A stretch of DNA of 47,555 nucleotides from a bacterium (GCA_026709815.1 JAPOSH010000044.1:1-47555), one strand, 5' to 3'; numbered from the stretch's first letter, positions 4,321 through 40,363 are shown. The notes: a model not told the origin generated them from the sequence alone. Program-made: numbers and translations.

Positions 4321-4697
<377 letters not shown>

Positions 4698-24243: not shown

Positions 24244-24319
24244 GGTGGGCCGTAAGGGACTCGAACCCCTGACCCCCTGCGCGTCATGCAGGTGCTCTAG
24301 CCAACTGAGCTAACGGCCC
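24244..24319 (-). tRNA. tRNA-Val(GAC)
   Basis: gggccgttagctcagttggctagagcacctgcatGACgcgcagggggtcaggggttcgagtcccttacggcccacc; cloverleaf with TTCGA. Confidence 0.93.
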
Positions 24320-25633: not shown

Positions 25634-25710
25634 TGGAGCGCCGGACGGGATTTGAACCCGTGAATCATGGCTTTGCAGGCCACTCCCTTAGTCCGCTCGG
25701 GCACCGGCGC
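25634..25710 (-). tRNA. tRNA-Cys(GCA)
   Basis: gcgccggtgcccgagcggactaagggagtggcctGCAaagccatgattcacgggttcaaatcccgtccggcgctCCA. Confidence 0.92.
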
Positions 25711-25791: not shown

Positions 25792-26742
25792 ATGACTGAG
25801 ACCGGCGAGCGCCTGCTGAGCTCCGAGGAACTGGCCAAGCTCAGCCAGCCGCCCCGAGCCGATCTGGCCGACGCGCTGGCCGAGGGCCCCGAGGCCGCAG
25901 TCAAGACCTTTCGGCGCATCGACCGGGCCTATCGGAACTTCATCGACGGGTTCGGAGCGTGGGTCGCCCAGACCCAGGCGTTCGCAGCCGAGCGCTACGG
26001 CGCTGACGGCCTGGAGCGGTTGGTCTCGGCCGACGACGCCTACCGGTCGGTGCTCTTGCACTCGCTGACCGATGAGGACATCACCGGCCGCCACCAGAGC
26101 GATCGGGCTGACCGCATTGCCGGGCTGATCGATCAAGGCGACCACCAGGCCGCGCTGGCCGCTTTCGATGCCTTGGAGGCCAGCTATCGCCGGATCCACG
26201 ATGTGGAGCGCGACCGGGTGGCCTCGGTGCTGTCACAGGTGTACCGGGCCTGGGGTCCCGACGTGCTGGAGGCGAGCATCCGCTTCGCCGGCGAGCAGAC
26301 GCTGCTGGGATGGATGCCCCACGATGTGGTCCGACCGGCCGAGGTGCGGGTCCGCCAGTGGGCCGCCATGCAGAAGGGCAATTTCGCCGACATCACGGTG
26401 GAAGAGACCGACGACGCTTTCGTGATCACCGTCCACCTGTGTGGCACGTGCGGGCGCCAAGTGTCGGACGGCTGTTACGGCGAGACCATGAACCTGGCGG
26501 TGGTGGCCGAAGACCATCCCCTCACCTTCGGCCAAGGTCCCGCCCCCATCTACCGAACCCACGTGTCGGTGATGCACTTCATCGTGCCGATGGAGCGTAC
26601 CGAGGTGCCGTGGCCGGTGGTCCAGTGCCCTGCGGGGATGGACGCGGGGCCCTGTCGGATCATGCTCTACAAGAACCCGGCGGCCACCCCGCCGAAGGCG
26701 TATGAGTTCGCGGCTGGCGCTTTGGCTGCTGGGAGCGGATGA
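25792..26742 (+). CDS. Hypothetical protein with Cys/His cluster (HLCGTCGR...H...C...C)
   Basis: 316-aa ORF with GC-typical codon usage; its stop codon lies antisense within the tRNA-Gly 3' end. Confidence 0.75.
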   Translation: MTETGERLLSSEELAKLSQPPRADLADALAEGPEAAVKTFRRIDRAYRNFIDGFGAWVAQTQAFAAERYGADGLERLVSADDAYRSVLLHSLTDEDITGRHQSDRADRIAGLIDQGDHQAALAAFDALEASYRRIHDVERDRVASVLSQVYRAWGPDVLEASIRFAGEQTLLGWMPHDVVRPAEVRVRQWAAMQKGNFADITVEETDDAFVITVHLCGTCGRQVSDGCYGETMNLAVVAEDHPLTFGQGPAPIYRTHVSVMHFIVPMERTEVPWPVVQCPAGMDAGPCRIMLYKNPAATPPKAYEFAAGALAAGSG

Positions 26743-26806
26743 CCGGGCTCGAACCGGCGACCTACACCTTGGCAAGGTGTCGCTCTCCCAACTGAGCTAC
26801 ATCCGC
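26732..26806 (-). tRNA. tRNA-Gly(GCC)
   Basis: gcggatgtagctcagttgggagagcgacaccttGCCaaggtgtaggtcgccggttcgagcccggtcatccgctcc. Confidence 0.94.
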
Positions 26807-36566: not shown

Positions 36567-39275
36567 TCAGGAGCAGCCGGAGGTGGCGCCGCAGCTGGGG
36601 CAGGCGTGGCAGCTTCCGGCCCGGACCATGAGGATCCCGCAGTCAGAGCAGAACGGGGCGCTGGCATCCAGGGGGCGCCGGCGGGTGAAGGGGGACGGCG
36701 GGTCGGGCTCCACGATGTCACCGGGCACGGTCACCGGCACCTGCTCTTCCACTCCGGGCAGGGTCGGCTGGCTCCGCTCGTCAGTGGTGTAGACCCCCAG
36801 CCCGAACCGTTCGCTTTGGTCGAGGTACTCCACCGCCAAGCGCCGGAACAGGTAGTCGATGAGGCTGGTGGCAATGCGTATGTCGGGGTCGTCGGTCATC
36901 CCGGCCGGTTCGAAGCGCATGCCTTTGAAAGCATCCACATAGGCCCGCAGCGGCACCCCGTACTGAAGGCCGTGGCTCACCGCCATGGCGAACGCGTCCA
37001 TGGCCCCGGCCAGCGTCGAACCCTGCTTGGACACCCGGATGAATATCTCGCCGGGGCTGCCGTCCTCGTACTCCCCGACGGTGGCGAAGCCCTTGCAGTC
37101 GGCCACCCGGAACTCGAAGGTGCGGCTGGTGCGGGACCGGGGCAGCCGACGGCGCTCCGGCTGAGCTGGCGCCGGTGCCGAGTCCGGGACCGGAGCGCCC
37201 GATACCGACAGGGGTTGGCCCAGCTTGCAGCCGTCCCGGTAGACGGCCAGAGACTTGACGCCCATTTGCCAGGCGTCCACGAACAGCTGCTGGATCTCCC
37301 CTGCAGTGGTGCTCTCCGGGACGTTCACCGTCTTGCTGATGCCCCCCGAGAGCCACGGCTGCACCGCGGCCATCATCTTCACATGGCCGCTGGGGGAGAT
37401 CACGTTGTCGCCCATCGAGCAGGCGAACACCGGCAGGTGGGCGGGGTGCAGATGGGGGGCGCCCACTATGGAGCTCCGTTGGTGCACATAGGCCTCGATG
37501 TCAGCGGCTTGCTCCGCGGTGTAGCCCAAGCGGCGCAGCGCCCGGTCGACCGTCCGGTTGAGGATCGGCATGGTGCCGCCCCCCACCAGCTTCTTGGTCT
37601 TGACCAGGCCCAGGTCGGGCTCAATGCCGGTGGTGTCGCAGTCCATCATGAACGAGATCGTGCCGGTGGGGGCCAGCACCGTGGCCTGTGAGTTGCGGAC
37701 GCCGACCGCGTCCCCCCACTCCACTGCGGCATCCCAGGCCGACCGAGCCGCATCCAGCACCCCGGTGGGCACCGGTTCGGCTTCCAGCCTGCTCAGCGCA
37801 TCCCGGTGCATTCGCAGCACCCGCTGAGTGGGCACCATATTCTCCTCGAAACCCTCGAACGGTCCGAGGCGTGCGGCCATGCGACCCGACGTCTCGTAGG
37901 CCACCCCGGTCATCAGCGCAGTGACGGCGGCGGCCAGGCCCCGGCCCTCATCGGAGTCATAGGCCAGACCCAGGGCCATGAGCGTCGCCCCCAGGTTGGC
38001 GTAGCCCAGGCCCAGCTGTCGGAACCGCCGGGTGGTGGCGCCGATCTGCTCAGTGGGATAGTGCGACGGACCGACCAAGATCTCCTGGGCCAGGGTCATC
38101 ACTCTGACTGCGGCGCTGAAACCCTCCACGTCAAACTCGCCGCCGTCGCCGACGAACGAGAGCAAGTTCAAACTGGCCAAGTTGCAGGCCGAATTGTCCA
38201 GGTGGAAATACTCCGAACAGGGGTTGCTGGCGGTAATCCGGCCCGTTTCAGCCGCGGTGTTCCACCGGTTGATGGTGGTCTCGAACTGCACCCCGGGATC
38301 GGCGCACTCCCACGCAGCCTCGGCGATCTGGGCGAGAAGCGACCGGGCCGACATCGTCTCCAGCACCTCGCCGTTGGTGCGGGCAGTAAGTTGCCAGTCT
38401 TCGTCGTCGACCGCCGCCGACATGAAGGCGTCGCTGAGCCGCACCGAGTTGTTGGCGTTCTGGTACTGGATGGAGTGGACATCGGCGCCGTCTAGATCCA
38501 TGTCGAAGCCCGCGTCGCGCAACGCCCGGGCCTTGCGCTCCTCAACCGCCTTGCACCAAATGAACACGGCAATGTCGGGGTGGTCGGCATCGAGCACCAC
38601 CATCTTGGCCGCCCGCCGGGTCTTTCCTCCCGATTTGATGGTGCCCGCGGAGGCGTCCGCGCCCCGCATGAAGCTCACCGGGCCGCTGGGGGCGCCTCCG
38701 CCGCTCATCTTCTCCTGCCGCGACCTGATCCGGCTCAAGTTGACGCCGGCACCTGAGCCGCCCTTGAAGATGCGGCCCTCCTCGCCGTACCAGTCGAGGA
38801 TCGACTCCATCGTGTCGTCCACCGCCAGGATGAAGCAGGCCGACGACTGGGGTACCGCGTCGGGAACCCCGAGGTTGAACCACACCGGCGAGTTGAACGC
38901 GGCGCGCTGGCGGACCAGCAGCCAGCGGAGTTCATCGGCGAAGATCGCCGCCTCCTCGGGTTCGGCCAGATGCCCTGAGCCAACACCCCAATCCACCAGC
39001 GTGTCCACCACTCGATCGATCACCTGACGAAGAGAAGTCTCTCGCTCCGGGGTCCCGAGACCCCCGCGGAAGTACTTCTGAGTCACGATGTTTCCTGCGT
39101 TGACCGACCAGACCACCGGGAACTCCACATTGCTCTGCTCAAAGGCCACCTCGCCGTCCGAGCTGGTTATCCGGGCGTCGCGGCGGTGCCACTCAACCTG
39201 GTCATAGGGGTGGGCATCGGCGCGGCTGAAGTGGCGGCTCAGACCGATCCTGGTGCAATCAGATGCCAGAGCCAT
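36567..39275 (-). CDS. nrdJ: Adenosylcobalamin-dependent (class II) ribonucleotide reductase with TSCPD domain and C-terminal Zn ribbon
   Basis: FNSPVWFN, SACFI, SNPCSEY, CNLASLN, APTGTIS, GISKTVN, YRDGCK, CPSCGATSGCS; RBS aaggag before ATG 39275. Confidence 0.95.
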   Translation of the reverse strand: MALASDCTRIGLSRHFSRADAHPYDQVEWHRRDARITSSDGEVAFEQSNVEFPVVWSVNAGNIVTQKYFRGGLGTPERETSLRQVIDRVVDTLVDWGVGSGHLAEPEEAAIFADELRWLLVRQRAAFNSPVWFNLGVPDAVPQSSACFILAVDDTMESILDWYGEEGRIFKGGSGAGVNLSRIRSRQEKMSGGGAPSGPVSFMRGADASAGTIKSGGKTRRAAKMVVLDADHPDIAVFIWCKAVEERKARALRDAGFDMDLDGADVHSIQYQNANNSVRLSDAFMSAAVDDEDWQLTARTNGEVLETMSARSLLAQIAEAAWECADPGVQFETTINRWNTAAETGRITASNPCSEYFHLDNSACNLASLNLLSFVGDGGEFDVEGFSAAVRVMTLAQEILVGPSHYPTEQIGATTRRFRQLGLGYANLGATLMALGLAYDSDEGRGLAAAVTALMTGVAYETSGRMAARLGPFEGFEENMVPTQRVLRMHRDALSRLEAEPVPTGVLDAARSAWDAAVEWGDAVGVRNSQATVLAPTGTISFMMDCDTTGIEPDLGLVKTKKLVGGGTMPILNRTVDRALRRLGYTAEQAADIEAYVHQRSSIVGAPHLHPAHLPVFACSMGDNVISPSGHVKMMAAVQPWLSGGISKTVNVPESTTAGEIQQLFVDAWQMGVKSLAVYRDGCKLGQPLSVSGAPVPDSAPAPAQPERRRLPRSRTSRTFEFRVADCKGFATVGEYEDGSPGEIFIRVSKQGSTLAGAMDAFAMAVSHGLQYGVPLRAYVDAFKGMRFEPAGMTDDPDIRIATSLIDYLFRRLAVEYLDQSERFGLGVYTTDERSQPTLPGVEEQVPVTVPGDIVEPDPPSPFTRRRPLDASAPFCSDCGILMVRAGSCHACPSCGATSGCS

Positions 39276-39345
39276 CAGCACTCCTTACAGGAATGCGCCT
39301 CGAAAGGGGGCATTCCACCTTGGCGGGTCAACGGTTTCGATTGAG

Positions 39346-39506
39346 GCTGCGGCATGAGCGGCCAGGTCAAAAGGGCCTCCGAATAAGGCATGTCTTCACC
39401 AGACACGCCAGCCTGGACAAACGCCGGGCTGAACCCCTCAAGGAGTCGCCTGAACCCCACTTTGGTTGTCGGCGCCAACCACCATTCCGGACGCTCACGC
39501 CGCAGC
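39346..39506 (-). ncRNA. Candidate structured RNA in the nrdJ 5' leader
   Basis: 15-bp closing helix (39492-39506 with 39346-39360) enclosing four hairpins; G-U pairs favour the minus strand. Folded by eye only. Confidence 0.55.
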
Positions 39507-39628
39507 GGTAGATCACGGTAGATGATGGTGCCTGTGGACGGTAAGGAGGACAAGGGGGATTCCCTGTGGATTTCGCGTGAATATCCCAAGACGTGCCGGG
39601 CTAGCCTGCCTGCTACCGTCGCGCGCCG

Positions 39629-40363
39629 GTGGATCAGCTGTTCCCTCGGTTCGTCTCGGACATCGATCCGGTGGCGGTCTACGCCTCCGACAGTCGGCCT
39701 GCACGCCCCGACCGGCCGTGGCTGATGCTGAACATGGTCACCTCTCCGGACGGCGCCACCTCGATCGACGGCGTCTCGGGGGGCCTGTCGAGCCCCGAAG
39801 ACCGCCAGGTGTTCGCAGCCATCCGGGGGGTGGCCGATGTGATCCTGGTCGCAGCCGAGACCGTGCGCCGGGAGGGCTACGGACCGCCGAAGACGGCCCC
39901 GGCGGCGGTCGCCGCCCGGACGGCCCGGAACCAAGCGGCCCGGCCCCGCGTGGCAGTGGTGAGCGCCTCGCTGGATCTGGACTTCACCGCCCCGGTATTC
40001 CAAGACCGCCCGCCTCCCCTGGTGCTCACCGTGGAAGCGCCCCCGGCCGACCGGCTGGCCCAGGCTGAGTTGGCGGCCGAGGTTCACCGCACGGGCATCG
40101 ACCGGGTGGATCCGGTTGAGGCGATGACCCGAATGCGGCAGACAGGAGCTGAAGTGGTGCTGGCCGAGGGCGGACCGAGCCTCAACGGCCAGCTCCTGGC
40201 TGCCGGACTTCTGGATGAACTGTGCTGGACGATCTCGCCTGCGCTGGCGGGCGGCGAGTCCACCAGGATGGCCGACGGCGCGCCACCCCTGCTTCAGCGT
40301 CTTCGGCTGGAGCGGATACTGGTCCACGGCCACACCCTGTTCTTGCGCTACCTCCGCCACTGA
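39629..40363 (+). CDS. RibD C-terminal domain / pyrimidine reductase family protein
   Basis: NMVTSPDG, ADVILVAAETVRREGY, EGGPSLNG.L..GLLDELC. Confidence 0.88.
   Translation: MDQLFPRFVSDIDPVAVYASDSRPARPDRPWLMLNMVTSPDGATSIDGVSGGLSSPEDRQVFAAIRGVADVILVAAETVRREGYGPPKTAPAAVAARTARNQAARPRVAVVSASLDLDFTAPVFQDRPPPLVLTVEAPPADRLAQAELAAEVHRTGIDRVDPVEAMTRMRQTGAEVVLAEGGPSLNGQLLAAGLLDELCWTISPALAGGESTRMADGAPPLLQRLRLERILVHGHTLFLRYLRH

Follow-up and report, generated by a model that had tools for sequence, protein, structure and literature searches.

Introduction

The supply of DNA precursors is set by ribonucleotide reductase, and how this enzyme is controlled is a classic problem. RNA-level control of reductase genes is, to our knowledge, limited to two cases: cobalamin riboswitches on the enzymes that do not need B12, and a deoxyguanosine switch in a single mollicute. 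The nrdABS genes of Streptomyces are under a cobalamin riboswitch, and in Mesoplasma florum a purine-family 2'-deoxyguanosine riboswitch is located upstream of reductase genes. Here, we describe a structured, conserved RNA that lies directly upstream of nrdJ, the gene for the B12-dependent (class II) reductase, in a 47,555-nucleotide stretch of bacterial DNA (GCA_026709815.1, JAPOSH010000044.1:1-47555; the whole stretch is referred to below as the window) and in other members of the order Acidimicrobiales. The Acidimicrobiia are abundant in waters and soils and are genetically almost unstudied.

The closest described systems each resemble this RNA in part. Cobalamin riboswitches on reductase genes also represent RNA-level control of reductase choice in actinobacteria; however, riboswitches of this family (RF00174) act on B12-independent enzymes, whereas the RNA described here precedes a B12-dependent enzyme and fails the cobalamin models. 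The M. florum riboswitch is likewise a three-way-junction sensor placed before reductase genes, and it offers a precedent for the sensing of nucleotide pools, but its model does not match the RNA, its stems and junctions are of other sizes and sequences, and the closing helix (P1) is 19–30 bp here. For Propionibacterium acnes, the relevant passage of PMC3848588 places cobalamin riboswitches on nrdAB and nrdDG, not on nrdRJ. A candidate cis-regulatory RNA directly upstream of nrdJ in another actinobacterial lineage (Streptomyces), RF03034, is listed in a table of PMC8079986 as '(nrdJ)-nrdJ, deoxyribonucleotide biosynthesis'; its model has 80 positions compared with the ∼160 nt of the present RNA, and Infernal sets the two apart. 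The long 5' untranslated region of Pseudomonas aeruginosa nrdAB is reported to affect mRNA level and stability (PMC12528414); the likeness is that of a long reductase leader, in a different enzyme class and a different phylum.

A conserved RNA directly upstream of nrdJ

The RNA occupies positions 39346–39506 on the minus strand of the window, within a divergent spacer of 353 nt (39276–39628) that separates nrdJ (minus strand) from a gene encoding 244 amino acids (plus strand). A first-pass annotation had placed a multi-branched leader RNA here, and its coordinates and sequences are all correct, including a TACCGT hexamer located 8 nt before a 15-bp helix. A 261-nt stretch of the locus folds with a predicted energy of −115.3 kcal/mol, compared with −98.3 ± 5.3 kcal/mol for 200 shuffled sequences (z = −3.2), none of which is as stable.

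The spacer is single-copy in its own genome. A DNA search of the 39 other genus genomes identified it in 38, with 70–86% identity (G038 lacks it), with the start of nrdJ visible in the sequences of all 38 relatives. The presence of one copy per genome disposes of the concern that the element might be a dispersed repeat of the MITE (miniature inverted-repeat transposable element) or REP (repetitive extragenic palindrome) kind. In an alignment of the core from 39 genus sequences, mean identity is 88%, much above the expectation for a neutral spacer.

A covariance model built from the genus (R1) yielded weak matches in nine genomes outside the genus in a sample of the order, eight of which lie upstream of nrdJ on the same strand; the ninth (L046, in G126) comprises only a long bare hairpin and was discarded as a false positive. 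A second model (R2) was built from 23 diverse sequences, and the E-values of both models are rough. R2 matches 32 of 151 sampled genomes of the order, distributed over 25 of 122 genera. Among 19 further loci detected with R2, nrdJ is directly downstream on the same strand in 18, and in the nineteenth (G063) it is 1.9 kb downstream. Samples of 151 genomes each from the class and the phylum gave 10 and three matching genomes, respectively, all of them within the same order, and the RNA was not found outside the order in either sample. Among the genomes searched, the family as delimited by these models is restricted to one order, Acidimicrobiales. Only eight of 80 NrdJ loci from a species collection match, indicating that many relatives either lack the RNA or carry a version that has diverged beyond the model. 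At all accepted loci, the RNA is next to no gene but nrdJ and is always co-oriented with it.

The assembly that contains the window comprises 2.8 Mb in 244 contigs and is 88.9% complete. The closest NrdJ loci belong to Acidimicrobiia/Acidimicrobiales assemblies (the best, L087, with 90% protein identity), and the lineage is a member of the Acidimicrobiia rather than a typical actinomycete.

Three-way junction fold and covariation

The fold indicated by comparison of the sequences is a three-way junction composed of P1, a second helix (P2) and a long-range helix (P3) joined by conserved junction strands, which corrects the inner fold of the first-pass annotation. P1 pairs a 15-nt 5' strand (39492–39506) with a 3' strand (39346–39360), and a 4-bp extension pairs CCGG (39487–39490) with CUGG (39362–39365), in which G39488 forms a G-U pair with U39364. 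Covariation in P1 and P2 was evaluated on an alignment of 48 true-strand sequences from many families, fitted to the model, which favours pairing. Compensatory changes are found at 17 of the 20 pairs of P1 and its extension, and 93.7% of the cells pair. The outer pair of the extension covaries (C-G, G-C and U-A), and 47 of the 48 sequences have G-U at the pair adjoining the innermost one of P1. Together with its flanks, P1 attains an unusual length of 19–30 bp. Each of five measures for P1 lies above all 500 shuffles and all slid controls, with slid partners pairing in only 30–49% of cases, and RNAalifold independently recovers the same 20 pairs. P1 is the only helix that RNAalifold recovers on this alignment; the inner helices rest on other comparisons.

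The strand on which the fold forms is evident from the wobble pairs. G-U cells number 135 and A-C cells 10, and pairing amounts to 94.2% on the sense strand and 83.0% on the antisense strand; the excess of G-U over A-C places the fold on the nrdJ-sense RNA, in keeping with the earlier remark that the wobbles work only on that strand. Covariation, G-U excess and the comparison of loci together bear out the proposal that a conserved RNA with covarying helices forms on one strand only, directly upstream of nrdJ.

Junction strand J1/2 (39475–39486) consists of AAUGGUGG plus 4 nt and includes a near-invariant GGUGG. The P2 hairpin (39447–39474) pairs CGCC (39471–39474) with GGCG (39447–39450) across a loop that contains GUGGGG; three of its four pairs show compensatory changes (97.1% paired; variants CGUC/GACG and CGCU/AGCG), and longer covarying versions occur in L075, L077 and L073. 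P2 is situated directly 5' of ACUCC, in the highly conserved strand J2/3 (ACUCCUU, 39440–39446). The long-range helix P3 follows, in which GAGGG (39435–39439) pairs with CCUUU (39370–39374). For 28 sequences outside the genus, the mean energy of the P3 duplex formed within each lineage is −13.1, compared with −11.1 ± 0.47 for permuted partners, and none of 5000 permutations is as low. The G-run has lost its upstream complement and kept its downstream complement in L068 and L072. All three segments related to the G-run have changed together in L071, so an alternative pairing of the run could still form. The remaining strand, J3/1 (UGAC, 39366–39369), reads UGAC or UAC across families, and the highly conserved junction strands are AAUGGUGG, ACUCCUU and UGA.

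Within the genus, the P3 domain contains two covarying hairpins and an optional one. CAGCC...GGCUG (39409–39431) has compensatory changes at four pairs, and GCCUU...GGAGGC (39375–39389) shows a C-G to U-A change in two sequences. The optional hairpin, GGCGUGUCU...AGACAUGCC (39387–39409), is present in 26 of 39 genus sequences and replaced by a 15-nt gap in 13; in the window, it has 3 nt in common with GCCUU...GGAGGC. In many lineages outside the genus (L050, L062, L066, L091, L068, L072, L074 and L110), CUUCGCGAAC is conserved immediately before the P3 3' strand, a position at which the genus has a GCCUC...GAGGC hairpin.

The first-pass annotation had drawn four inner hairpins. CAGCC/GGCUG stands on its compensatory changes and GGCGUGUCU/AGACAUGCC survives as an optional element, and the other two were rejected. 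UGGUUG/CAACCA is particular to the window sequence, most relatives reading GGCUGAC...GACGACC, and GACUCCU/AGGGGUU shows no covariation, its G-run pairing instead over a long range with CCCUU before UGACC. The corresponding ACUCC/GGGGU pairing has its outer pairs broken in ∼20 of 43 sequences, and 1350 of 5000 permutations are as low, denoting no lineage-specific complementarity. A CUGA/UCAG helix returned by RNAalifold was also rejected, with A-A mismatches in L053 and L070 and G-G mismatches in L050 and L052. Finally, UCCGGAAU/AUUCGGA, which had been thought to compete with extension of the closing helix, falls in a hairpin loop that lacks conservation.

Comparison with known RNA families

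A search of the window with Rfam 15 at gathering thresholds gave no match for the RNA and recovered only ordinary RNAs elsewhere: class A RNase P RNA (4325–4697, 225.9 bits) and three tRNA genes (24246–24319, 25637–25710 and 26734–26806). Relaxing the threshold to E ≤ 10 over 601 nt (39150–39750) returned only chance matches to P5 and RcsR1 at E > 5, and at E ≤ 0.1 the RNA matches no family in 18 nrdJ loci, including five carriers of the RNA (L087, L091, L045, L050 and L068). The comparison with cobalamin, nrdJ-motif and 6S models that had been proposed for this locus thus leaves the RNA uncatalogued, and it is undescribed in the open-access literature covered (PMC and bioRxiv).

Among individual families, RF03034 does not reach its gathering score of 40.3 bits and gives no match at E ≤ 10 in the window or at E ≤ 0.1 in the five carrier loci; a search with this model over the 151 genomes of the class was also negative, with controls that were silent too, so that this search says little. 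No member of the cobalamin clan CL00101, including RF00174 and RF01482, matches at E ≤ 10 on the 601 nt or at E ≤ 0.1 in the five carrier loci. Neither a B12 box nor an NrdR box is visible in the RNA, in line with the first-pass annotation. As a positive control, L167, a canonical cobalamin riboswitch of the same genome, scores 87.5 bits; in the window's genome (G000), the canonical riboswitch precedes a B12-type ABC transporter, and no cobalamin riboswitch was found upstream of class I nrdA in G020. The 6S model RF00013 matches neither the window nor five genomes of the genus (G000, G019, G020, G024 and G034), although it found only five of 14 known control genomes. 6S RNA is a rod with a large central bubble, whereas the RNA here is a three-way junction.

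Upstream promoter and DnaA-box-like repeats

Upstream of P1 on the minus strand is a putative promoter for the RNA. Its −10-like hexamer, TACCGT (39515–39520), conforms to TAnnnT, and this motif is conserved at the matching place, ∼8–14 nt before P1, in 34 of 36 loci from many families. Two DnaA-box-like elements accompany it: a proximal TCCACAGG box (39531–39538) that starts 18 nt before the hexamer, a distance retained in most of the 36 loci, and a distal TCCACAGG box (39563–39570) that is conserved in the genus. At least two boxes lie within 90 nt upstream of the RNA in 32 of 36 loci, and in several lineages there are additional ATCCACC-type repeats, spaced by roughly one helical turn.

We take the TCCACAGG boxes to share the core of the 9-mer DnaA-box consensus. 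In two relatives with complete genomes (G020 and G024), boxes with a TCCACA core, several of them followed by the same G, are found upstream of dnaA and in the dnaA-dnaN spacer. Closely spaced box pairs are infrequent in five relatives (2–6 per genome compared with 0–4 for the control), and they include the RNA promoter in all five, the replication origin (oriC) in one (G020) and the region upstream of a DNA methyltransferase in three. In the window's genome, TCCACAGG pairs occur only at the RNA promoter and upstream of a gene read as dnaE, which hints at a small replication regulon with common TCCACAGG boxes. From these likenesses, we infer that the RNA promoter may be controlled by DnaA.

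The sole other close TCCACAGG pair in that genome is at G000:C204:18603-18632, just upstream of the putative DNA polymerase III alpha gene. The methyltransferase site (L178, G020:C1:1599451-1599477; the same site occurs in G034 and G021) is a tight triple-box cluster in an AT-rich spacer, and the enzyme has a DPPF motif and appears CcrM-like by eye; names of neighbouring genes throughout (RibD/DHFR-like, dnaE, methyltransferase and B12-binding protein) come from translations read by eye. In G026, a 43-nt, 95% identical copy of the box-CCTCCTTAC-box promoter block is present at a second locus (L040/L041, C1, ∼1203167–1203209), where it is followed by TAAAAT and unrelated sequence and preceded by more TCCACA-type boxes, in a region that holds a transposase and a restriction-modification methyltransferase.

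The Escherichia coli nrdAB promoter carries both DnaA boxes and NrdR boxes. The same two protein inputs appear to meet at the nrdJ loci, which have DnaA-box-like repeats upstream and, in most related lineages, NrdR boxes at a promoter. In contrast to E. coli, the two inputs are located on two promoters with a structured RNA of 120–170 nt between them, and the genus is devoid of NrdR.

NrdR and the neighbouring genes

NrdR (TIGR00244) was detected in none of the 40 genomes of the genus, 35 of which are at least 90% complete, with a control that was found in nine of 14; the absence of nrdR noted in the window therefore extends to the genome and the genus. A class I reductase is also present in the genus. 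In contrast, seven of eight RNA-bearing genomes from other families carry nrdR on the same contig, 1–2.5 kb upstream, in the order nrdR, an opposite-strand RibD-C/DHFR-like gene, the RNA and nrdJ. The idea that the RNA takes the place in which nrdR is usually found, as a substitute for NrdR, does not survive this coexistence. Together with an NrdR-boxed promoter that often lies between the RNA and nrdJ (see below), it argues instead that the RNA is an older, separate layer, independent of NrdR, which outlived the loss of NrdR in the genus. Most lineages seem to have a distal nrdJ promoter, which comes with the boxes and the RNA, and in addition a proximal nrdJ promoter. Of 36 loci, 13, the genus included, have 29–150 nt to the ATG and no NrdR-box-like sites. 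The NrdR-controlled nrdJ promoters of L050, L052, L081, L083, L068 and others have a common inner palindrome resembling TGTAATTACA between −35 and −10, which may be a site for a further regulator.

In the window, nrdJ extends over 36567–39275 of the minus strand, with its ATG at 39273–39275 and a PF02867 match at 37239–38843; its Shine-Dalgarno sequence, AAGGAG (39281–39286), lies five bases upstream of the ATG. The divergent gene (39629–40363, plus strand, GTG start) encodes a putative RibD-C-terminal/DHFR-like protein and is a kept neighbour in most related loci. Between 39600 and 39631 on the plus strand, a Shine-Dalgarno sequence is not visible, and a TACCGT hexamer is present 9 nt before the GTG, which suggests that the mRNA may be leaderless and that the box region may be common to this gene and the RNA promoter.

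Candidate expression platform

Two hairpins near the start of nrdJ could form a switch. Hairpin H1 (GGAAUGC...GCAUUCC, 39290–39316, minus strand) stands just before the Shine-Dalgarno sequence and is 93.8% pairable in the genus. Its alternative, H2 (39278–39296, minus strand), pairs GCAUUCC with GGAGUGC, belongs to the minimum-energy fold and is 98.7% pairable with one compensatory change. The GCAUUCC segment is common to both, which makes them mutually exclusive, and H2 would hide the Shine-Dalgarno sequence. In one relative (L063), folding yields a 15-bp GC-rich stem followed by UUUUUUCUUU, with a U6 tail, ∼20 nt before the ATG; this tail can pair with the Shine-Dalgarno sequence, and the position of the hairpin between the RNA and the Shine-Dalgarno sequence leaves no room for a promoter. 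Simple promoter and terminator scans of L063 gave no sites, and the terminator shape comes from folding only.

The 5' arm of H1 also contains a near-invariant ATG (39296–39312; genus alignment A7) that opens a frame of 8–13 codons. The frame ends in or just after the nrdJ Shine-Dalgarno sequence, with a TGA that overlaps the nrdJ ATG in most members, and it could represent a short upstream reading frame or simply result from the hairpin.

Discussion

The RNA probably helps to set the amount of B12-dependent reductase that is made. The reading we favour, with about even chances, is that it does so as a new cis-acting leader RNA that responds to a signal, possibly a riboswitch. Under such a model, transcription would begin at the RNA's own TAnnnT promoter, which overlaps the array of DnaA-box-like TCCACAG repeats, and the RNA would constitute the 5' leader of the nrdJ mRNA in the window genome. 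The junction would bind a signal, which may be a protein or a small molecule tied to nrdJ; the exclusive association with this gene points to adenosylcobalamin or a nucleotide as ligand. The signal would set whether replication-coupled transcripts yield NrdJ, with an output step in which the Shine-Dalgarno sequence is exposed or hidden (H1 versus H2 in the window) or, in at least one relative, a terminator is read through.

Several features are consistent with this leader model. The RNA has a conserved fold, covarying helices and conserved unpaired junction bases, as riboswitch-type RNAs do, and its mix of invariant junction bases with stems that are optional or variable in length resembles that of ligand-binding RNA domains. 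Simple scans of the window identified no sigma-70-like promoter and no terminator in the interval from the RNA to nrdJ, and no match to NrdR boxes was found between the RNA and the ATG; since a proximal promoter and a terminator are both missing, the RNA should form the leader of nrdJ. The same conclusion follows from the absence of NrdR and of a second −10-like hexamer, which is missing from the window genome. The mutually exclusive H1 and H2 and the L063 hairpin point the same way, as do the constant link to nrdJ and the conserved TAnnnT hexamer with its box 18 nt away in most loci.

A number of observations weigh against the leader model. NrdR-box-like sites, counted approximately with a loose half-site regular expression, lie between the RNA and the start of nrdJ in 23 of 36 loci; in every sequence read, these sites follow a strong TTGACA-N17/18-TGTAAT promoter, the −35 element of which starts 0–6 nt after P1 in several loci, so that transcription of nrdJ there can do without the RNA. 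A TAGAAT/TAAAAT −10-like hexamer is found downstream of the RNA, 44–47 nt before the ATG, in 34 of 39 genus sequences, although the window and its closest relative (L002) lack it. The distance from RNA to ATG ranges from 29 nt to 1.9 kb, and the covariation of H1 and H2 among the genus sequences does not exceed that of shuffles. A P1 of 19–30 bp from the presumed +1, moreover, is unusual for a switching helix, whereas stable small RNAs and RNase III substrates typically have one. Finally, a canonical cobalamin riboswitch in the same genome makes a second, unrelated B12 sensor less economical.

Several of these points would be explained if the RNA were a stable, separately working small RNA, encoded between the array of DnaA boxes and the promoter of nrdJ, transcribed as a unit of its own or excised from a longer transcript, and acting in trans or by binding a protein. 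6S RNA, for example, is cut from the ssrS-ygfA transcript, and the failure to detect 6S in any of the five genus genomes means that a housekeeping RNA could be unannotated. P1 would join the presumed 5' end to the 3' end of such a molecule, and the downstream promoters, whether the NrdR-controlled one abutting P1 or the hexamer in the genus, and the very variable spacing to the ATG would be expected for an independent unit. We consider this a real but lesser possibility, since no terminator follows P1 in 36 downstream sequences (the L063 hairpin excepted), the RNA is invariably co-oriented with nrdJ and adjacent to no other gene, and no other promoter for nrdJ is visible in the window; its fold, moreover, is not the rod of 6S RNA with a central bubble but a three-way junction, in which the 3' junction strand measures 3 nt, and it does not match RF00013. 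The long, near-perfect P1, which spans about two helical turns or more from the presumed +1, could also serve passively, as a ligand-free 5' stabiliser or an RNase III processing site, and so fix how long transcripts of the distal promoter last. Leaders targeted by RNase III are known in actinobacteria, the pnp leader being one, but an element of this kind has no need for ∼25 near-invariant unpaired bases, an invariant G-U pair and a three-way architecture across at least 25 genera, which renders this explanation unlikely.

Another idea is that the RNA is a cobalamin riboswitch, strongly diverged, that activates nrdJ in the presence of the cofactor. In its favour, NrdJ needs adenosylcobalamin, and there are short local likenesses to the cobalamin consensus on its 5' side (GG-GAA...GGUG, compared with CGG-AAU-GGUGG here) and on its 3' side (GACCUGCC, compared with UGACCUGGCC here). 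Nonetheless, no model of the clan matches, the core elements GCCACUG and CCCGCAACUG are absent, and a canonical riboswitch of this family exists in the same genome, and we judge the idea very improbable. That the locus is not an RNA at all, but a DNA palindrome, a mobile repeat or a small coding gene, might be entertained given that the outer arms form an inverted repeat in DNA and that 38 of 39 genus sequences have one sense frame that stays open throughout the core. Open frames are usual in GC-rich DNA, however, with at least one in 30 of 33 sequences from outside the genus, and the lengths of these 33 sequences (117–170 nt) show no preference among the three length classes (14, 10 and 9). 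Along with the asymmetry between G-U and A-C cells and the single copy per genome, these counts effectively refute a non-RNA reading.

A more specific form of the leader model, in which the RNA serves as the sensor of a new class of riboswitch that responds to a nucleotide-pool or cofactor signal, such as a deoxynucleoside triphosphate (dNTP), a deoxynucleoside or adenosylcobalamin, and gates DnaA-timed nrdJ transcripts, is tentative, and we think it doubtful. If it were correct, DnaA-dependent initiation, the balance of ATP and dATP (through NrdR, where present) and a signal sensed by RNA would converge on one gene, and in the genus that has no NrdR, the RNA would be the main feedback sensor.

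An uncatalogued RNA before a B12-dependent enzyme across at least 25 genera of Acidimicrobiales would represent a new orphan regulatory RNA whose association is confined to very few genes, a narrowness that shortens the list of plausible ligands and makes for a testable question. Its location between promoters with DnaA boxes and NrdR boxes, and its retention after the loss of NrdR, offer a natural experiment on the way in which the timing of replication and the sensing of nucleotides are wired together.

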